Shown: in pieces, positions 14,738 to 60,501 of the stretch
Layout: each line of letters opens with the position of its first letter
Position numbering within the stretch: position 1 is the stretch's first letter
From: Dehalococcoidia bacterium
GTDB taxonomy: Bacteria > Chloroflexota > Dehalococcoidia > SM23-28-2 > RBG-16-64-32
Assembly (NCBI GenBank): GCA_034408935.1
Contig: DAOUMV010000013.1
Coordinates: forward strand, 50,759-114,758
DNA: 64,000 bases
Reading direction: 5' to 3'
Notes under the pieces: model-generated
Seen by the model: only the letters and a program-made list of their open reading frames with translations
The model's database searches: none
Told to the model about the DNA's origin: nothing
Translations under genes and position numbers: made by a program

Positions 14738-14811
14738 GCGGGCGTAGCTCAGTGGTAGAGCTCCTGCCTTCCAAGCAGGTCACACGGGTTCGATTCCCGT
14801 CGCCCGCTCCA
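14738..14811 (+). tRNA. tRNA-Gly (anticodon UCC)
   Basis: GCGGGCGUAGCUCAGUGGUAGAGC..., anticodon loop CUUCCAA, T-loop GGTTCGATTCC, CCA encoded. Confidence 0.85.
14767..14811 (+). repeat. attL (45-bp, 3' half of tRNA-Gly)
   Basis: CCTTCCAAGCAGGTCACACGGGTTCGATTCCCGTCGCCCGCTCCA identical to 18900-18944. Confidence 0.8.
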
Positions 14812-14868
14812 TTTGACAATTAGCCGCTCATCTGCGAATCTAAAAGTGCCAAGTTTCGGAGGTGAGCG

Positions 14869-15822
14869 ATGACCAAGCAAGACACCACCCTGCACCGGAA
14901 AGCGCCTAATGTTACCCTGCCCGACGAACCCCTTGTGACCGGCTGGGAGCTTGCCATGAGGGCGTCGGGGCGGGCCGACAAGACGTTGACGACCTACCTT
15001 GACACCCTGAATGCCCTGCGCCGCTTCCTGGCCGAGCGGGGGATGCCGGGGCTGACGGAGGTGACGACGGAGCACCTGCGCGAGTGGTTCAACGATCTGT
15101 ACCAGCGCGGGAACAAGCCCGCTACCGTCAGCGTCAGGTATCGGGCCATGCAGCAGTTCTTCAAGTGGCTCGTGACGGAGGGGGAGCGCAAGGACAATCC
15201 CCTAGAGCGAGTGGCCCCGCCCAAGGTGCCGGAGGAGCTTCAGCCCGACTATAAGCCGGAAGACATCGAGGCGATCCTCGCGGCGATCCCCGCCAACAGC
15301 AAGGACCCGCTCCTGTTGCGGGATCGGGCGATCCTTCTCACTCTGTATGACACCGGCCTGCGGGGGGCGGAGCTATGCGGCGTCATGGTCGATGATCTCG
15401 ATTGGCGCGAGTTGACGATCACCGTGCGACAAGGCAAAGCGGGCAAGCAGCGGGTCGTCAGCATCGGCCCCGTCGCGGCTCAGGCCATCGAACGCTACCT
15501 CCGGCGTCGGGGCATCGATGTTCCTTATCTCTTTGCTACGCGAGAGCAAGGCCCGATGACGCCCAACGCCATCAGGCAGATTCTAGGTCGGTTGTTCAAG
15601 CGGGCGGGCGTAGAGTTCAGGGGCACCCACGGCTTCCGGCGATCTTTCGCCCTGCAATTCCTGAACAACGGCGGCGACCCCTCCGACCTGCGGGCGATCT
15701 GTGGCTGGTCAAGCTATGCTATGCTTCGACGGTACACTGCCGCACAGGAGACGGAGCGGGCGATCCGCGCTCACCGCAAATACTCCCCTGCGTCGCATCT
15801 CAGGTTGAAGGGAAAGCGCTGA
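14869..15822 (+). CDS. int: Tyrosine-type site-specific integrase
   Basis: N-terminal SAM-like domain; catalytic R..HxxR..Y region (LRDRAILLTLYDTGLRGAEL, HGFRRSFA, LRRYT). Confidence 0.88.
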   Translation: MTKQDTTLHRKAPNVTLPDEPLVTGWELAMRASGRADKTLTTYLDTLNALRRFLAERGMPGLTEVTTEHLREWFNDLYQRGNKPATVSVRYRAMQQFFKWLVTEGERKDNPLERVAPPKVPEELQPDYKPEDIEAILAAIPANSKDPLLLRDRAILLTLYDTGLRGAELCGVMVDDLDWRELTITVRQGKAGKQRVVSIGPVAAQAIERYLRRRGIDVPYLFATREQGPMTPNAIRQILGRLFKRAGVEFRGTHGFRRSFALQFLNNGGDPSDLRAICGWSSYAMLRRYTAAQETERAIRAHRKYSPASHLRLKGKR

Positions 15823-15990
15823 GAGAGCCACGAGAACGTTAGGCCAGACGACCGGCTGGCACACCCGCTGGCCGGTCGTTCGTATCTGGGGCTGACTGTC
15901 AAGCGTGCTCCCTGAGTCGCCCTGACGCCCTGAGAAGCACGAGAAGGGCCGTGTATTCGAGGGGGCGCAGCCGAGGTCACACTTGGGCCG

Positions 15991-16422
15991 CTAGCCGCCC
16001 TCGCGGTGCCATTCCGCGATGCGACGCTGGAAAGCCTCTAGCTCGCTCTCCTCCGGCTCGTCTAGATAGATATAGATCGTGCCATCCGGCCCGACTTCCA
16101 CATCCCTTTCGGGGCGACGCACGCGACGGTTGAAGCGTTGGATCGCTACTCTCATTCGGTCGGGAGCGTTGGCATCATCGGGAGGATCGGCCACCCTGGA
16201 GCAGAGTTCGTCCCAGATTTCCTCTGCGCTCTTCTTGCGGTAGGGAGGCAGGCAAGCCGTCAACTGCTGGTGGAGCCAAGCTTGGGCATCGCGTGTGGTG
16301 TTCTTACGGGGACGGCCACGCTTGCGCCGCTCCCGTTTGGGCCGACCTACGGGAGCTTCCCACACAGTCTCCCATCTGCGCCCGTCGCGGTCGTGTCTAA
16401 CCAGTGGCCTATGCCGCCCCAT
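15991..16422 (-). CDS. Element-encoded basic protein with AT-hook-like GRP motifs
   Basis: VGRPKRERRKRGRPRKN; possibly leaderless (TAAAAT 6 nt upstream of ATG). Confidence 0.4.
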   Translation of the reverse strand: MGRHRPLVRHDRDGRRWETVWEAPVGRPKRERRKRGRPRKNTTRDAQAWLHQQLTACLPPYRKKSAEEIWDELCSRVADPPDDANAPDRMRVAIQRFNRRVRRPERDVEVGPDGTIYIYLDEPEESELEAFQRRIAEWHREGG

Positions 16423-16788
16423 ATGTCAATTTTAGCATGGGTTTCTGTTCGTGACTCCTAGGGGGAGAGCGTGCAGACTGGAGGCATGAACGCCGACGAT
16501 CCGCTGGATGCCAAGCTACGGGAGGAGCGAAATAGGCGGGCCAACCTCCGCCGCAGGCTCGCGGCCCTGGCCCAACACCGCGCAGCCCGACTGCCCGACG
16601 GCAGGTCGGCTATCGCCGTCAAGGGTGGGCTGATCGGAGGCAGGCGTCGAGCGGAGCAACACCCTGGCGGGCCGAAGGGACTAGGCACCGAGCTAGCCGC
16701 CCGGAGGTGGCATCCCAGCCTCTTCAGACACGACGGCGGCACAGGAGTTGCAGATCGTCGTGGTCAACGACCTACCCGCCGTGCCGTA

Positions 16789-16837
16789 AAAAACCGACAA
16801 GAAAACCCTCTAAGGACAGGGGCATCGTCGGTTTTTA
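16789..16837 (+). terminator. Terminator-like hairpin (AAAACCGAC...GTCGGTTTTT)
   Basis: 10-bp outer stem with inner 4-bp stem, followed by T-run; lies inside six-frame ORF 16471..16899, arguing that ORF is not coding. Confidence 0.35.
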
Positions 16838-16916
16838 AGGGCGGACAACCGAATACGCAGAGGATGGTGGCGCTAGGCGGGAGCGCCCTGCACCTGTGAC
16901 ACCGAGAGGAGGTTCA

Positions 16917-17429
16917 ATGATGAAGCCAATCGAGGTCAAGTTGACCAACGCCGAGATCGCTGCGGCGAAAGCGGAAGCGAGAATCATCCGAAAGGGGGCG
17001 GAACGGCGAGACCTGCCGACCGAGTTCTTAGGCGAGGCATGGGTGTTCATGATACACTGGGCCTTTCTCAAATACGTCGCGTTGCACACAGACCTGACCG
17101 TTGCAGGCGGCCTTCCCTACATCGGCCCGGCTGAACGCTTCCCGGTTCATTTTGTGCTCCATCGCGGGGATGAGCGGATTGAGGTAGACCTTCGCCCTGT
17201 GAGCGAGAAGCAACTCGCCAGCTACCCCTTTGTGGATTGGTCAGAGTGGAGACGCCAGCACATTCGACAATTCACAGTGATCGCCGTGGTGAGGGACAGC
17301 CATGTCACCTTTCGAGGAGCGGCAAAGGCAGAGGACTTGCTTGCAGCGATGGAACCTCACCCTGAAAGCGACTATCGGACGCGGCTCAACGTATTCCGTC
17401 TCGAAACGCTTCACGAGTTGCTACGCTAG
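16917..17429 (+). CDS. Element-encoded hypothetical protein (170 aa)
   Basis: Strong RBS GAGAGGAGG 6 nt upstream of ATG; no recognised domain. Confidence 0.5.
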   Translation: MMKPIEVKLTNAEIAAAKAEARIIRKGAERRDLPTEFLGEAWVFMIHWAFLKYVALHTDLTVAGGLPYIGPAERFPVHFVLHRGDERIEVDLRPVSEKQLASYPFVDWSEWRRQHIRQFTVIAVVRDSHVTFRGAAKAEDLLAAMEPHPESDYRTRLNVFRLETLHELLR

Positions 17430-18047
17430 CGCCTTTGACGACGTTCGACCCCTTTAGCTCCTCAGTCCGCTCCCTTACGATGTTGCGGGCTGCCCCCTGT
17501 CGATTCGGCCTTCGGCCTCTTCGACAGGCATTTCGTTGGCTGGGGCGTGTTAGTCCTGTGAGAGCGACTAGCCCAAGGTTAGCCCGCCCTGACATCACCA
17601 TGAACGCCTAATTGAGCCGTGCCGGAGGCCCGATCTGGCCCCGATTCGTATCTACGGCGGGTAGGCAGACGACCCCCTAACTGCCCAGCAGGTAGCCGTA
17701 GGGCTGTGCCATTCGGCGTGTGTGAAAGACCTTCCGGTAAGGTGGGGGTGCCCAAAAGGAAGATCGCTGAGGCCGTGCGAGCCTCTGCTGTGCAACCCGA
17801 CGCTCTTGCCGAACGCCCTCCGCCGAAATGCGTTAGTGCGGCTAGGACTAGAGGGAATTGGGAAGTAATGTTCTAGCGCAGGTCGCGGGTTCGAGTCCTG
17901 CCGCAGCGCCCCGTTGACATCTTCCCAGAACGGGCGCACAATCGGGCCAGCGGGCGGGCGTTAGGCACGGTCTTGCGTTGCGAGGCCGGAGGTTTGTCCG
18001 CCGCTGTGCAATTGGGACGCGCGGGCGCTGATCAAAGGGGGTCGGAC

Positions 18048-18542
18048 GTGCGTATCGCCGGATTGTCAATCCTGCTTTCAGCCCTGCTGACCGTGGCGTG
18101 TACCGGCGGCGGCACCAGTGATGGGCAATCACCGACTGTTGACCCTACACAACCACCGATGCAAACGATACGGGGCACGCTGACACTTACTGAGGGATTC
18201 TACCCACCGCGCTATCAACCATGGGGTGAAACGCTCTACTTCGACGGAGACCTATGCTATGGGAAAGGCGGCTATGACGATATCAAGGAGGGAGCGCAAG
18301 TGACAATTCGGGACGAGACGGATACCGTCATCGCGGCTGGACGCCTGTCGGAGGGCCAGATTAAGACAACAGAACTAGGTCTCGACCTCGTGTCTGCCGA
18401 CTGCATCTTTCTATTTGAAGTGACCGACGTTCCTTCAGCCAACTTCTACACGGTCGAAGTGAGCCACCGTGGGGGTCTCACCTATTCCCTTGATGAGATG
18501 GACGCCCTCGACTGGGAAGTCTCCCTCTCATTGGGAGACTAA
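18048..18542 (+). CDS. Element-encoded putative lipoprotein
   Basis: GTG start with AAAGGGGG RBS; signal peptide + lipobox LTVAC; Cys-rich mature domain. Confidence 0.5.
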   Translation: MRIAGLSILLSALLTVACTGGGTSDGQSPTVDPTQPPMQTIRGTLTLTEGFYPPRYQPWGETLYFDGDLCYGKGGYDDIKEGAQVTIRDETDTVIAAGRLSEGQIKTTELGLDLVSADCIFLFEVTDVPSANFYTVEVSHRGGLTYSLDEMDALDWEVSLSLGD

Positions 18543-18899
18543 GCCAACCGGCCCCACCACGCCTGCCACGGCGATGTCGAGTGAAGATGGCGGCGATAGA
18601 GGGGCATTGAAACCCGCCTAGCCCTGGCACACAATACCAGCACCATGAGATGATGGGCCGTCTGGATCACCGCAGTCGTAATCCTGGCCCTGCTCAACGG
18701 CATCGTGTGGACGCTAGTGGTAGCGCGGTAATGCAGCATGCCAGTCGGCATGATGACTTGGGAACCGTGGCCCCCGCCATGCTGTACAATGGGGTGAGAA
18801 TATCCTCCCAGTGCGCCTAACTGTCACCAGTTTGCAGATACAACAGGGGCGAAAACAAGAGAAAAACTGCGACTGATCAGCGCGCATGCGAGGAAATAC

Positions 18900-18944
18900 C
18901 TTCCAAGCAGGTCACACGGGTTCGATTCCCGTCGCCCGCTCCAG
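18900..18944 (+). repeat. attR (45-bp copy of tRNA-Gly 3' half)
   Basis: Exact copy of 14767-14811 without the 5' half of the tRNA. Confidence 0.8.
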
Positions 18945-19134
18945 GCTCAATCCCAACGATGCCGTGTCCACGGGACTCGTGGCAGCGTGGAGATCGGCGC
19001 TCGGTTCCCTGAGTCGGCGGCAGCGGCCCCGATCGCGGTGGCGCTGGACAGACCATCGCCGAGCGCATATCATTAGCCACCGCCACGTGAAACCTGTGCG
19101 GCTCAAGTCTCCCCGCGATCAGGAGGTCTGAGGG

Positions 19135-38269: not shown

Positions 38270-38857
38270 TTACTCACTAGTTCTCGGCTGTTGCCTGGCG
38301 TCACCAGTGACGAGGTACTCGACAACCGCGGCTACTGATTCTTCGAAGTTCTCGCCCATGTCGAAAAAGGCGATTCCCAGGACTCCACAATCCCGCTTGT
38401 ATTCCTCGCTGACTGTGCGTATCGTTCTCACAATCTCCTTGTAGGTCTCCGAGGGCTTCTCGGCCAACCAGTCGCCGTGAGCCTCTGAGTAAGCCCTAAG
38501 CATACGCAGTTTCTGTTGGGGGGGAACGGTCAGTTCGCCCACAAAGCAGGCCCTCACAGCGCCGACGAACTCGTCCCGTGCTTGGGCTGCGTGTCGCGGC
38601 GATATGCCCGCTCCCTCGATGAGCAGCGGCTCATCCCTATCCAGCCGAATTGATATCAGGGCGCGGAGGAAGGGCCAGAGGGTCTCGCACTCCTCTGGGA
38701 TAGTCATCTCAAACCTCATCCCCAGTTGAGGAGCTCCGTCCAGCAACACGTGGATAATGTCGTCCGTGGAGATGACTGAGATGCTCGCGCGTTCGCGAAA
38801 TCGCCGTGCAATAAGAGACTTGCCAACGCGCATTGGGCCGCCGAGAAGGTATATCAT
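38270..38857 (-). CDS. P-loop NTPase/kinase-like protein in low-GC patch
   Basis: Walker A GGPMRVGKS; local GC visibly below background. Confidence 0.55.
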   Translation of the reverse strand: MIYLLGGPMRVGKSLIARRFRERASISVISTDDIIHVLLDGAPQLGMRFEMTIPEECETLWPFLRALISIRLDRDEPLLIEGAGISPRHAAQARDEFVGAVRACFVGELTVPPQQKLRMLRAYSEAHGDWLAEKPSETYKEIVRTIRTVSEEYKRDCGVLGIAFFDMGENFEESVAAVVEYLVTGDARQQPRTSE

Positions 38858-55537: not shown

Positions 55538-55819
55538 ATGCTGTTCGTCGTCACTCACGAGCACACGCCCGAGCTCTGCCCAACGGACGACCCGGCGCCG
55601 GTGCACAAGCTGACCGACAAGAACCACATCAAGGAGTCGGGGGTGAAGGTGGTGGGGAGCTATATAGCGTCCCTCGAGCACGTCCTCTTCTTCGTGCTGG
55701 AGGCGGACGACTACGCCCAGGTGGTGCGGTACTTGCGACCGATCATGAAGATCGGCACGCCGGACATCGTGCCGGCTCAGACGCTGTCCAGGGGCCTCGG
55801 CCCCTTCTACAAGGGATAG
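55538..55819 (+). CDS. Small conserved hypothetical protein (93 aa), paralog A
   Basis: RBS GAGGAGG; MLFVVTHEHTPELCP... ; 75-80% identical to 56073-56354. Confidence 0.6.
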   Translation: MLFVVTHEHTPELCPTDDPAPVHKLTDKNHIKESGVKVVGSYIASLEHVLFFVLEADDYAQVVRYLRPIMKIGTPDIVPAQTLSRGLGPFYKG

Positions 55820-56072: not shown

Positions 56073-56354
56073 ATGCTGTTCGTTGTTACTCATGAGCACA
56101 CGCCGGAGCTCTGTCCGTCGGACGATCCGACGCCGGCACATAAGCTGGCGGACGAGAAGCACATCAAGGAGTCGGGGGTGAAGGTGGTGGGGGCGTGGGT
56201 GGCGCCGCCGGAGCACACCTTCTACCTGGTGCTGGAGGCGGACGAGTACGGCCACGTGGTGAGGTACCTGCGGCCGATGATGAAGATCGGGACGCCGGAC
56301 ATCGTGCCGGTGCAGGAGCTGAGCGACACGCTGAACCACTTCCCGAAGCGGTAG
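56073..56354 (+). CDS. Small conserved hypothetical protein (93 aa), paralog B
   Basis: RBS AAGGAGAG; tandem duplicate of 55538-55819. Confidence 0.6.
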   Translation: MLFVVTHEHTPELCPSDDPTPAHKLADEKHIKESGVKVVGAWVAPPEHTFYLVLEADEYGHVVRYLRPMMKIGTPDIVPVQELSDTLNHFPKR

Positions 56355-56456: not shown

Positions 56457-56651
56457 GGGAATAGAATACCGCCGACTGAAGTGCGCGGGAATGGATTCCC
56501 TGCTAGCGTAGCGGCTCAGCCCGGGCCGAGGGTGAAAGGGGAATAGAACACCGCCGACTGAAGTCGGCGGCATGAGAGAGAGCCGCGCACTTCAGTGCGC
56601 GGGAACGGATTCCCTGCCAGCGTAGCAGCTCACGCCGGGCCGAGGGTGAAG
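56457..56651. repeat. Tandem direct repeat (83-bp unit, second copy carries 31-bp hairpin-forming insertion)
   Basis: GGAATAGAA(T/C)ACCGCCGACTGAAGT...GCGCGGGAA(T/C)GGATTCCCTGC...CCGGGCCGAGGGTGAA; palindromes GCCGACTGAAGTCGGC and CGCGCACTTCAGTGCGCG; overlaps 3' end of convergent gene. Confidence 0.65.
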
Positions 56652-56992
56652 GCGTCGTCGATGACGTAGAGCCAGGTGCCGTCGGGCTGACGGCGGGCGA
56701 CCTCGACGGCGCGGCCGGACATGGCCTGCGGGCTGGCGATGCTCCAGCGGGAGTAGGAGAGGGCGATGTCGCCAGCGAGAATCACCTTGTCGGTCTCCAC
56801 GGTGATGTCGGGCTTCATGGCGACGCGGGGGGCCATGTCCTGGCGGATGGCGTCGGTACCGGTGCGGACTTCGCCCTGCTGGTTGGGCTTGCTGGCGCCG
56901 GGCTCGAAGATGGCGAGGAGGGCGTCGAGGTCCCCGTCCTTCATCGCCTGGGAGAAGAGCTGGCCGAGGTCTTCGGGCTTCTGCGCGGGCAT
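56630..56992 (-). CDS. SnoaL-like/NTF2-fold protein (DUF4440-like)
   Basis: Size and pattern (DLDALLAIFEPGA...WLYVIDDAF) typical of NTF2-like superfamily. Confidence 0.55.
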   Translation of the reverse strand: MPAQKPEDLGQLFSQAMKDGDLDALLAIFEPGASKPNQQGEVRTGTDAIRQDMAPRVAMKPDITVETDKVILAGDIALSYSRWSIASPQAMSGRAVEVARRQPDGTWLYVIDDAFTLGPA

Positions 56993-57155
56993 GAGGGGGC
57001 TCCTTCCGGATGCGGATCGTTGGGGTGAATGGTATGGGCGGCGCGGGCCGCCGGTCAAGGGTAGGGGTGGCCACCCCACCCCAATGTTGTTGGTCCCGCC
57101 CGGCCCGCCCCTGAACTCCGTTCAGGGTTGGCCCCACCCCGGGGCTACGAGCGGC

Positions 57156-58223
57156 TCAAGGGGTGGAAGGCGATGCGGATGACGCCGCCTCAACTCTGAA
57201 CGTTCGCACTTCTTCGTACGTCGCGTCATCACGGAGTTCCTCCGCAAGGAACTCAACCCAATCATCCGTATACAGATAGTCGCCGTGTGGCTCGTCGTAC
57301 TGGCAGTACTTGGTCTGGCAGTCAACTGGGTCTTGGGCACCGACAGGCGGGCGTACCTCCCAGTGCTTCCATGCCCGTGTGTGCGTGTCCATGTTGAACG
57401 CCTTTGGTGCTATCTTCGCGGCTACCAGCGGCACGACGTGAGAGGGCTTGAGCTTGCCCTTGCTCACTACAGCCACTGTTCGCGGCTTAATAAGAGCCAC
57501 CGTCTTGTCGTATTCTCGCGTGTGGTCAGGATCATAGTGCACGAACTCTACCGCTAGGGCGTCCTTTGAACGATGGCCTGCAAGCATAGGGATGAGGAAG
57601 ACCTTGTAACTGTAAGCCATATCACCCAGAACGTCTGGGCTCAGGGAACTCCGAAAGTCGGCCACGTAGGTCTTGATGTCAGCATTGGCAGGTGCAGATA
57701 GCAAGCGCCGCATCGCTTCTCGAGCCTTCGGGTCTCGCGCTCTGGAAAACTGCAGTGAGAAGGCGAGATTCGTGTCAAGCGCAAGGCGATCACTAAACTC
57801 CTGCACGAGGAAGTCTTCGAAGTTGATCAAGAGGGCCTGACACTCTCCAAAGATGTCAAGATCGATTTCGGGCGCATCAGCGTGTTCAATCAAGTTCCGC
57901 AGGCCGATGAAGAACCGCAGATTCTGCCTAGTCGCGTCGTCTTTTTGGCCCCAGTGCTGGCGAACGCATTCACTCAGATCCCAGGTCTTCGGTCTGCCGT
58001 CAATCCGCTCGAAGTGGATAGAGTTTGGCCTTCGGTACCAGGGTTTGATTCCGCGTTTCCAGAAGACTGCGTGGAAGAGGGCGGCCCAGGCCAGGTGCAT
58101 CGGAACTACGTACGTGCCCGATTTGAACGTGGTCAACGGATTGTTGTAGGCACCGACAGCGTGAAGCGCTTGTTGCCGCGCCTTGGCTACCAGTTGTCGC
58201 GCCCTAGATACGCCTCTTGGCAT
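57156..58223 (-). CDS. Low-GC hypothetical protein with Rx4H (HEPN-like) motif; possible Abi-type defence protein
   Basis: Local GC ~52-55% vs ~68% background; motif LRNLIEH; 355 aa. Confidence 0.5.
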   Translation of the reverse strand: MPRGVSRARQLVAKARQQALHAVGAYNNPLTTFKSGTYVVPMHLAWAALFHAVFWKRGIKPWYRRPNSIHFERIDGRPKTWDLSECVRQHWGQKDDATRQNLRFFIGLRNLIEHADAPEIDLDIFGECQALLINFEDFLVQEFSDRLALDTNLAFSLQFSRARDPKAREAMRRLLSAPANADIKTYVADFRSSLSPDVLGDMAYSYKVFLIPMLAGHRSKDALAVEFVHYDPDHTREYDKTVALIKPRTVAVVSKGKLKPSHVVPLVAAKIAPKAFNMDTHTRAWKHWEVRPPVGAQDPVDCQTKYCQYDEPHGDYLYTDDWVEFLAEELRDDATYEEVRTFRVEAASSASPSTP

Positions 58224-58241
58224 GGCCTGCCCCCTTCGGCA

Positions 58242-59621
58242 CTACTGGCCTCTCTTCTTGACCTCCTGATCTGGCTGCCTCCCTCGCAGTCGCTCCATGT
58301 GCTCCGCTATTCGCTTCTCCCAGCCGATGTCGCCGGGGACGTAGTAGCGGCGGCCGGAGAGCTTCTTCGGCAGGTGCTCCTGGCCGGAGTGGTGCTCCGG
58401 GAAGTAGTGGTCGTACTTGTAATCGCGGCCGTAGCCCAGCTCCTTCATCGTGTCGGTGACGGGGTTGCGCAGGTGGAGGGGGACAGGCTCGTTGCGGGTG
58501 GCCTTGGCGTCCTTGAGGGCGCGCATGTACGCCGAGCCAACGGAGTTCGACTTGGGGGCGGTGGCGAGGTAGATGGTGGCCTCGGCCAGGGGGTAGAAGC
58601 CCTCCGGCATGCCGACGAAGTGGACGGACTGCTGGGCGGCGACGGCGACCTGGATGGCGTGGGGGTCTGCCAGGCCCACGTCCTCGGAGGCGAGGATGAC
58701 GAGCCGGCGGGCGACGAAGAGGGGGTCCTCGCCGCCCTCGATCATGCGGGCGAGCCAGTAGAGGGCGGCGTCGGGGTCGGAGCCGCGGAGGGACTTGATG
58801 AAGGCGGAGATGATGTCGTAGTGCCAGTCGCCGGCGCGGTCGTAGAGGGCGGCGCGGTGCTGCAGCGCCTCCTCGATGTCGGCCAGGGCGACCGTGCGCA
58901 CGCCCTTCCCATCCGCCTGAGCGGACTGGGCGGCGAGCTCGAGGGCGTTGAGGGCGATGCGGGCGTCCCCGGCGGCGGCCTGGGCCAGCCCGGCGACGGT
59001 GTCGTCGGCGATCTCTATGCGCATGGGGGCCAGCCCGCGCTCCTCGTCGCCGAGGGCGCGGCGGAGGATGACCTCGACCTGCTCCGGGGTCAGCGCCTCG
59101 AGGGTGAACACGCGGCAGCGGGAGAGCAGCGGCGAGATCACCTCGAAGGAGGGGTTCTCCGTCGTGGCGCCGATGAGGGTGACGGTGCCATCCTCGACAT
59201 AAGGGAGGACGGCGTCCTGCTGGGCCTTGTTGAAGCGGTGGATCTCGTCGATGAAGAGGATGGTGCGCTGCTCGTGCATGCCGAGGCGGTCGCGGGCCTC
59301 GTCGACGATGCGGCGGAGGTCGGCGACGCCAGCGGCCACGGCGGAGATGGGCTCGAACTGGGACTGGGTCATGCCGGCGACGATGCGGGCGAGGGTGGTC
59401 TTGCCGGAGCCGGGCGGCCCCCAGAGGACGACGGAGGGGACCTCGTCGGCCTCGATCGCCTTGCGCAGGAGGCGACCCTCGCCCACGAGGTGCTCCTGGC
59501 CGACGAACTCTTCGAGGGTCTGGGGCCGCATACGAGCGGCGAGGGGGGCCTGGCGGGCGGCGCGACGGGCGCCGGCCTGGGCGAACATGTCGGGGGCTTT
59601 GGAACGCTTGTGGGCCCGCAT
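58242..59621 (-). CDS. rarA: Replication-associated recombination protein A (AAA+ ATPase)
   Basis: Walker A GPPGSGKTT, Walker B ILFIDEIHRF, MgsA C-terminal domain. Confidence 0.9.
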   Translation of the reverse strand: MRAHKRSKAPDMFAQAGARRAARQAPLAARMRPQTLEEFVGQEHLVGEGRLLRKAIEADEVPSVVLWGPPGSGKTTLARIVAGMTQSQFEPISAVAAGVADLRRIVDEARDRLGMHEQRTILFIDEIHRFNKAQQDAVLPYVEDGTVTLIGATTENPSFEVISPLLSRCRVFTLEALTPEQVEVILRRALGDEERGLAPMRIEIADDTVAGLAQAAAGDARIALNALELAAQSAQADGKGVRTVALADIEEALQHRAALYDRAGDWHYDIISAFIKSLRGSDPDAALYWLARMIEGGEDPLFVARRLVILASEDVGLADPHAIQVAVAAQQSVHFVGMPEGFYPLAEATIYLATAPKSNSVGSAYMRALKDAKATRNEPVPLHLRNPVTDTMKELGYGRDYKYDHYFPEHHSGQEHLPKKLSGRRYYVPGDIGWEKRIAEHMERLRGRQPDQEVKKRGQ

Positions 59622-59642
59622 ATCGCCAGTATTATCGCACGT

Positions 59643-59669
59643 TTGTGCTGAGACGACCAGAGTTATAAT
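59643..59669 (+). promoter_or_regulatory. Promoter with consensus TATAAT 8 nt upstream of ATG (leaderless-type)
   Basis: TTTGTG-N16-TATAAT then ATG at 59677 with no SD. Confidence 0.45.
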
Positions 59670-59676
59670 ACTGGCC

Positions 59677-60501
59677 ATGCAGCCGCAGGAACTGCGCAAG
59701 ATCGCCGAGGGCCGTGAGGCGGAGATGTTCGCTTTGGAGCCCGGCACGATCTTGAGGCTGTACCGGGACCCCGAGCGCCAGAGCGCGGCGCAGTGGGAGG
59801 CGGCAGCGCTGAAGGCGGCGGCGGACCGCGGGGTGCGAGTGCCCGCCGTTCACGAGCTGACGACGGTGATGGGACGGCCGGGGCTGATCATGGAGCGCAT
59901 CGAGGGGCCGGACCTGCTGACGCTGATGGGACGGCGCCCCTGGACGGTGTTCCAGGCGGGCCGCATCTGCGGCGAGGTGCACGCTCGGCTGCACGCCGCA
60001 GAGGCGCCCAGGAGGATGCCCGCCGTCCGGGACACTCTCCGACAGTGGATGGCGTCATCCTACCGGCTGCCCAAACACCTCGCGGAGTTCGCTCTGGACA
60101 TCTTGAAAGGTTTGCCAGACGGCGAAAGCCTGTGCCACGGCGACTTCCATCCGGGGAACATCTTGATGTCGGGGGAGACACCCGTGGTGATCGACTGGAC
60201 GAACGCCAGGCGGGGTGACCCGGCAGCGGATGTCGGCCGCAGCCTGGTGTTGTTCCGCGTCGGGGAGCCCCTGCCGGGAATGCCCGCCTTAGTACGTTAC
60301 CTGCATGTGCTGGGCAGCAAGATCGTGACGTGGGGCTATCTTCGGGCCTACCGTCGGGTGCGGCCCCTCGATATGGCCGTCGTCGAGCGGTGGGTGGTGG
60401 CACACGCCGCGGCACGGCTGGCCTTCGAGCACATCCCGGAGGAAGAGGGAGCGCTGCGAAGGCTGCTCGAGCGGCGCTACGCCAGGCCTGACACTCCCTA
60501 G
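59677..60501 (+). CDS. Aminoglycoside/phosphotransferase-family kinase
   Basis: Brenner motif CHGDFHPGNIL and IDW motif. Confidence 0.75.
   Translation: MQPQELRKIAEGREAEMFALEPGTILRLYRDPERQSAAQWEAAALKAAADRGVRVPAVHELTTVMGRPGLIMERIEGPDLLTLMGRRPWTVFQAGRICGEVHARLHAAEAPRRMPAVRDTLRQWMASSYRLPKHLAEFALDILKGLPDGESLCHGDFHPGNILMSGETPVVIDWTNARRGDPAADVGRSLVLFRVGEPLPGMPALVRYLHVLGSKIVTWGYLRAYRRVRPLDMAVVERWVVAHAAARLAFEHIPEEEGALRRLLERRYARPDTP

Follow-up and report, generated by a model that had tools for sequence, protein, structure and literature searches.

On the minus strand of the window, as the analysed stretch of 64,000 nucleotides is called here, a single gene of conspicuously low GC content is situated between rarA and a SnoaL gene, which raises the question of what this gene encodes and how it came to be kept at this site. 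The gene (57156-58223, minus strand) is a complete open reading frame (ORF) of 355 amino acids with an ATG start, located exactly where the preliminary description had placed it. Its N-terminus (MPRGVSRARQLV, MPRGVSR...) lines up with the N-termini of homologues and the start codon is therefore correct. Both proposed flanks are confirmed by Pfam and display native composition: upstream lies rarA/mgsA (58242-59747, minus strand; MgsA_C 3.4e-68, AAA_assoc_2; GC3 0.92) and downstream a SnoaL_2/DUF4440 gene (56630-57079, minus strand). The real start of the latter is probably the ATG at 56992, as judged from a gene call of 120 aa in L001 and from a sigma-70-like site preceding this position (57058-57029, minus strand).

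With a GC content of 0.565, the ORF represents the minimum among all 1,068-bp windows of the 64 kb; their mean is 0.652 with an sd of 0.027, which places the ORF about 3.2 sd lower. The direction of the bias described before thus holds, whereas the figures given for it (about 52-55% against about 68%) slightly overstated a difference of 56.5% versus a window mean of 65%. Six genes near the ORF have a GC content of 67-71%. Moreover, GC3 amounts to only 0.652, compared to 0.849-0.922 in six neighbouring genes, so that the anomaly resides in synonymous codon usage and not in amino-acid content.

The N-terminal part folds into a HEPN domain (aa 11-193; 57645-58193, minus strand), which consists of a helical core (aa 7-142) and a helical extension. 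A Pfam profile search identifies this domain as DUF3644 (PF12358), a HEPN family, with an E-value of 6.5e-44 and 150.2 bits, the curated gathering cut-off being 27.6 bits as a whole-protein score; the match covers profile positions 2-182 of 183. This is in line with the HEPN-like protein postulated earlier. The predicted catalytic Rx4H motif R109-N-L-I-E-H114 can be read directly from the sequence at 57882-57899 (minus strand), with the codons of R109 and H114 at 57897-57899 and 57882-57884, respectively, and the LRNLIEH string, previously recognised as Rx4H, is found at 57882-57902. Residues R109, E113 and H114 are invariant in 37 homologues with identities of 44-80%. The protein displays the all-alpha fold similar to solved HEPN domains that characterises the superfamily, and by fold and conserved motif it belongs to the HEPN superfamily. 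Kinship to Abi_2/AbiD/AbiF (PF07751) or Swt1, which had also been suggested, is not borne out, as the Pfam search reports only DUF3644 at E<=1. The closest solved folds to the HEPN domain include HepT toxins; HepT/HEPN-MNT as well as Csm6/AbiV/AbiA HEPN structures share 7-17% sequence identity with the window protein, which differs from HepT/Csm6/AbiA-type systems in lacking an MNT antitoxin, a CARF domain or a reverse-transcriptase partner. No HepT-like match was detected in the Pfam profile search, and a sequence search of the PDB with full-length and C-terminal profiles retrieved nothing.

Over nearly its full length (aa 2-339) the protein matches the 353-position PADLOC model PDLC04950 of the candidate family PDC-S19 with an E-value of 1.4e-118, in keeping with the defence candidate proposed before. 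Six more PDC-S19 models match, and similar PDC-S19 scores are obtained for the homologues P0074, P0088, P0012, P0057 and P0019. In length, single-gene organisation and full-length HMM match the window protein agrees with PDC-S19, and nothing in its sequence sets it apart from this family. The family is already catalogued, namely as Pfam DUF3644, as HEPN since 2013 and as PADLOC PDC-S19 since 2023-24. DUF3644 was identified as a new HEPN family by Anantharaman et al. in 2013 and overlaps with the 'EC042_2821' family, for which a conserved motif, fusions to wHTH, REase and Zn-ribbon domains and a location in R-M operons were described (PMC3710099). The strong PF12358 match, the conserved Rx4H motif and the presence of homologues in R-M operons connect the window protein to EC042_2821/DUF3644; however, an N-terminal wHTH and a CxxC zinc ribbon are missing. 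PDC-S19 itself emerged as a single-gene candidate in the 'guilt-by-embedding' study by Payne et al., whose PDC families comprise 145 candidates with defence not yet tested (bioRxiv 10.1101/2024.01.29.577857). According to a paper from 2026, validation does not extend to all PDCs, and no paper mentioning PDC-S19 was found in a literature search. NCBIfam provides no model for the window protein, and PHROGs gives only a weak match to a family of unknown function. The 90%-clustered collection contains 1,311 homologues, and 838 clusters at 50% identity carry the C-terminal module.

The HEPN domain is followed by a middle region (aa 196-255; 57459-57638, minus strand) with a beta-beta-alpha arrangement. 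In the homologue alignment S205, L210, P212, E226 and D231 are invariant and K246 is near-invariant, but the region is poorly modelled (pLDDT 34-65 in both models) and yields neither a Pfam nor a PDB sequence match. A PD-(D/E)xK site made up of E226/D231/K246 is conceivable, though the model is poor here and no profile supports it. The C-terminal module (aa 256-345; 57189-57458, minus strand) is predicted to adopt a MerR/excisionase-like winged helix (alpha-alpha-beta-beta-alpha-alpha) with the conserved cluster H281/C302/C307/D310/H313/D315/W322. The window protein contains only two conserved cysteines, and C302 is replaced by Ala or Thr in 3 of 37 sequences, which bears on any interpretation of H281/C302/C307/H313 as a Zn-site. 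The EC042_2821 C-terminal domain (PF18740) does not match the C-terminus of the window protein at E<=10, while sub-threshold matches are observed in 11 of 26 homologous C-termini (best E 0.0019). The region corresponding to these matches is modelled as a MerR-like winged helix rather than a restriction-endonuclease fold.

P0222, a metagenomic representative of 450 aa, joins a Schlafen/AlbA_2 domain (aa 130-255) to the final ~100 residues of the PDC-S19 C-terminal module, with a motif content nearly identical to that of P0057. The protein reflects either a true exchange of domains between two proteins associated with defence or a chimera created during assembly.

The homologues are found in many settings, among them defence-linked and plasmid contexts. 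At four loci (L088, L090-92) the gene is positioned between a SNF2/NOV_C helicase and a DUF1156 methylase with a DUF499 ATPase, which corresponds to the Hma layout, and a Schlafen gene or Septu-like ATPases lie beside these loci. Two further homologues (L084, L089) are located within operons that combine an MmeI/Eco57I-type methylase with a PLD-SNF2 helicase, followed in one of the two by two ThsB-TIR genes, and another one (L086) adjoins Ymh-HEPN, Schlafen and N6-methylase genes. A conjugative Rhodococcus plasmid carries the gene between a preceding DNA methyltransferase and a following recombinase, and on a Catenovulum plasmid it lies beside a transposase. In total, 27 plasmids but only 1 of 50,697 phage genome records carry a family homologue. 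An R-M operon location, present for homologues at L084, L089, L088, L090 and L103, is absent at the window. In contrast to the sampled homologues from Hma- or RM-like systems, which likewise belong to PDC-S19, the window gene is neither in nor near any defence system: the inspection of the neighbourhood with PADLOC, as recommended in the preliminary description, came out negative, with no match for any of ten neighbours in the window. The neighbourhood also holds a two-component system and an APH-like kinase, and a solo homologue among housekeeping genes, comparable to the window gene, is seen at L082.

With moderate confidence, we regard the window gene as a self-contained two-part HEPN immune effector of the DUF3644/EC042_2821 branch (PDC-S19). 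According to the proposed mechanism, the N-terminal HEPN domain would be a metal-independent RNase with R109 and H114 in its active site, which is probably shared between the two subunits of a homodimer, the arrangement seen in other HEPN enzymes. The conserved beta-rich linker and the winged helix with its His/Cys/Asp cluster, which make up the C-terminal half, most likely bind nucleic acid, or alternatively an invader protein, and would hold the RNase off, or target it, until a phage or plasmid cue is encountered. The activated enzyme would then cut cellular and/or invader RNA, resulting in growth arrest or invader clearance. The gene itself is a foreign acquisition of long standing, placed directly behind rarA and retained by selection. 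That the protein acts as an RNase, dimerises, senses through its C-terminal half and confers defence is inferred.

HEC-08 of E. coli ECOR52 (WP_001313577.1), a validated Hma-embedded HEPN defence protein described as DUF3644 plus zinc fingers, acts in the manner proposed here for the window gene; mutation of its motif histidine (H128) abolished defence (bioRxiv 10.1101/2024.01.29.577857). Precedent for activity that depends on the motif residues comes from such other HEPN families only. Like the window gene, HEC-08 is a single gene encoding an N-terminal HEPN domain with an Rx4H motif. However, no sequence similarity to the window family is detectable (hhalign probability 1.7%), and the string of CxxC zinc ribbons forming the HEC-08 C-terminus is absent from the window protein. 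HEC-08 matches the PADLOC models HEC-08, 'DUF3644' PDLC01688 and PDC-S64, whereas the window protein matches none of these; with the HEC-08 model, the window protein gives no match at E<=1 and HEC-08 itself scores 1.1e-173. Membership in HEC-08 was rejected on the basis of PADLOC, hhalign, Pfam and the missing CxxC array. The designation 'DUF3644' differs between resources: HEC-08, published under this name, matches PADLOC 'DUF3644' PDLC01688 (2.8e-71) but not the current Pfam PF12358 (E>0.1), and the window protein behaves in the reverse manner.

The Ishtar proteins (ist1/ist2) of Acinetobacter baumannii are single-gene HEPN anti-plasmid systems, which combine an N-terminal HEPN domain, reported as DUF4145 or DUF3644 and carrying an RNxxEH motif, with a C-terminal domain of alpha/beta type that is uncharacterised; they rid cells of RP4 at little cost to viability, and their genes stand alone, sometimes between core genes (bioRxiv 10.64898/2026.07.06.735840). 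In one alternative, the window protein would be primarily an anti-plasmid or anti-MGE incompatibility factor and not an anti-phage abortive-infection gene: by removing an RNA needed by the invader, for instance a replication primer, the HEPN RNase would bring about loss of the invader without cell death, as proposed for Ishtar. Ishtar's RNxxEH motif resembles RNLIEH of the window protein, and members of PDC-S19 are common on plasmids, some of them conjugative, for which exclusion of rivals would pay. On the other hand, sequence kinship to the Ishtar set is lacking. A profile of 14 sequences from its Table S3 aligns to the window family with an hhalign probability of 6.6%, the window-family motifs FGECQ, YNRP and YNNP are absent from this table, and the sampled Ishtar homologues gave no Pfam DUF3644 or PADLOC matches. 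Ishtar also differs in its C-terminus and in length (164-261 aa for the Table S3 homologues examined, compared to 355 aa), and it was embedding in Hma or RM systems that had led to the recovery of anti-phage genes. An incompatibility factor is an unlikely explanation. Membership in Ishtar was rejected on profile, motifs and Pfam/PADLOC. Since profile similarity is lacking for both, and the signature motifs are missing from the Ishtar table, HEC-08 and Ishtar are, as far as sequence comparison indicates, functional analogues of the window gene and not its family.

The rarA stop codon and the ATG of the DUF3644 gene are separated by merely 18 nt, which contain the Shine-Dalgarno-like sequence GAAGGGGG (58230-58237, minus strand), read from the sequence 6 nt before the ATG and of putative function. 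No promoter-like site was found upstream of the DUF3644 gene within the scanned region, and the gene is probably transcribed with rarA. A hairpin (57102-57134, minus strand; inverted repeat I14 with 15-nt arms and a 3-nt loop), located 22 nt past the DUF3644 stop, possibly marks the end of the rarA-DUF3644 transcript. Rfam reveals no RNA element at the locus. At two loci of embedded homologues, a tiny ORF directly upstream overlaps or abuts the DUF3644 gene (L084, 9829-9984, 51 aa; L090, 7870-8004, 44 aa); such an ORF is absent from the 18-nt gap of the window.

The position next to rarA recurs at two other loci. At L099, a rarA with 76% identity precedes a homologue of 64-65% identity, and at L093 an 80%-identical homologue lies between the C-terminal tail of RarA on its upstream side and a SnoaL-like fragment downstream. 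This fragment is a short ORF (1237-1302) starting 42 nt past the DUF3644 stop, which encodes ...QDGTWLYIIDY and resembles only the C-terminal end of the window SnoaL protein (QPDGTWLYVIDD). The downstream gene of L093 may be truncated or rearranged, and the contig ends soon after. Conversely, 70%-identical homologues follow a KTSC gene instead of rarA. Neither native GC nor core conservation, both named beforehand as observations that would speak against a defence gene, is seen in relatives: the GC content of the gene is 0.53-0.585 at every locus, whatever the GC of the flanks (0.53-0.69), and among 80 rarA loci from other species none has a DUF3644 gene within 6 kb. The SnoaL gene is likewise missing from all 80. 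The closest RarA proteins in the contig scan, from Dehalococcoidia MAGs, are 64-65% identical, and the GC-rich genome of the window probably belongs to the Chloroflexota; with nothing above this identity, the scan supplied no close relative without the gene for an empty-site comparison.

GC3 values of 0.63-0.65 are kept in all three rarA-linked loci, while the neighbours of the gene in the window and at L099 display a GC3 of 0.90-0.92. Compared with the 80%-identical orthologue (L093), dN/dS amounts to 0.087; the DUF3644 gene, foreign in its codon usage, is under purifying selection. The recurring site at rarA, the GC content and the dN/dS together indicate an old, selected resident instead of a recent arrival or a decaying remnant. 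Accordingly, the horizontal origin suggested by the preliminary description is supported by GC3 and GC, but dates back further than a recent transfer. Between the window and L099 (601-1647), the silent sites of DUF3644 are saturated, whereas dS of the adjacent rarA C-terminal fragment is 0.68. This contrast could be due to repeated allelic replacement at a hotspot or to a strong rarA codon bias compressing dS.

Alternatively, an old acquisition may have been domesticated as a host RNA-processing or regulatory protein, which is co-expressed with rarA and now has a housekeeping or stress role. The short gap without a promoter-like site, the adjacency to rarA at L099 and L093, the strong purifying selection and the lack of defence neighbours are all consistent with this explanation. 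However, the survey of rarA loci from other species argues against a general functional link, 70%-identical homologues occupy a different context, the foreign GC3 persists at all three rarA-linked loci, and the contexts of the family as a whole are defence systems and plasmids. Domestication appears quite improbable. Even less probable is that the gene brings the host no benefit, either as a selfish toxin or addiction-type element or as an inactive passenger. In its favour, toxin-antitoxin systems often employ HEPN domains as toxins, HepT is among the closest solved folds, and the composition is foreign. Yet, regarding the HEPN-MNT arrangement, no MNT antitoxin gene, antitoxin-sized gene or other small partner ORF adjoins the gene, its neighbours being rarA and SnoaL; the ORF is intact and contains every family-invariant residue, and a dN/dS of 0.09 argues against decay. 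Moreover, insertion scars in the form of flanking direct repeats, a tRNA, an integrase or a transposase were not detected at the locus, and the only tRNA-integrase pair in the window is about 40 kb away.

This pair consists of a tRNA gene (14738-14808, plus strand) and a tyrosine recombinase/phage-integrase ORF (14869-15822; Pfam Phage_integrase 4.8e-32). It is followed by a run of ORFs without Pfam match and with a GC content of 0.555-0.61 over about 16700-19000, and the region 14738-19000 is probably a small tRNA-integrated mobile element. A further low-GC patch (38270-38857, minus strand) contains a 195-aa ORF without Pfam match. Tandem paralogous genes of 93 aa (MLFVVTHEHTPELCP...) are located at 55538-55819 and 56073-56354 (plus strand), of which the first matches DUF3303 (E 6e-5) and the second was assigned by its near-identical N-terminus. 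Finally, a second copy of the 3' end of the SnoaL-like gene stands just past this gene as part of a 37-nt direct repeat with 89% identity (56500-56536 and 56614-56650, 114 nt apart) and may be a rearrangement remnant.

Returning to the proposed immune effector, a more specific and rather doubtful version can be formulated. PDC-S19 would be a HEPN RNase gated by a MerR/excisionase winged-helix sensor, which harbours a conserved His/Cys/Asp cluster, possibly metal-binding, in place of the REase fold that gave the related Pfam domain its name. In this Chloroflexota lineage it may in addition have been resident for a long time as an immune gene, passed on vertically as part of the rarA transcript, its composition having withstood amelioration across a divergence at which its silent sites are saturated.

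The window gene adds a Chloroflexota member to a widespread family that has been listed as a defence candidate but never tested, and its annotation can be improved from 'hypothetical protein' to 'DUF3644/HEPN-domain protein, PDC-S19 defence candidate'. That foreign codon usage has persisted at a syntenic site is of minor evolutionary note and does not amount to a new kind of system. If PDC-S19 were confirmed, it would add another compact one-gene HEPN immune effector, with the C-terminal module as a new type of sensor.
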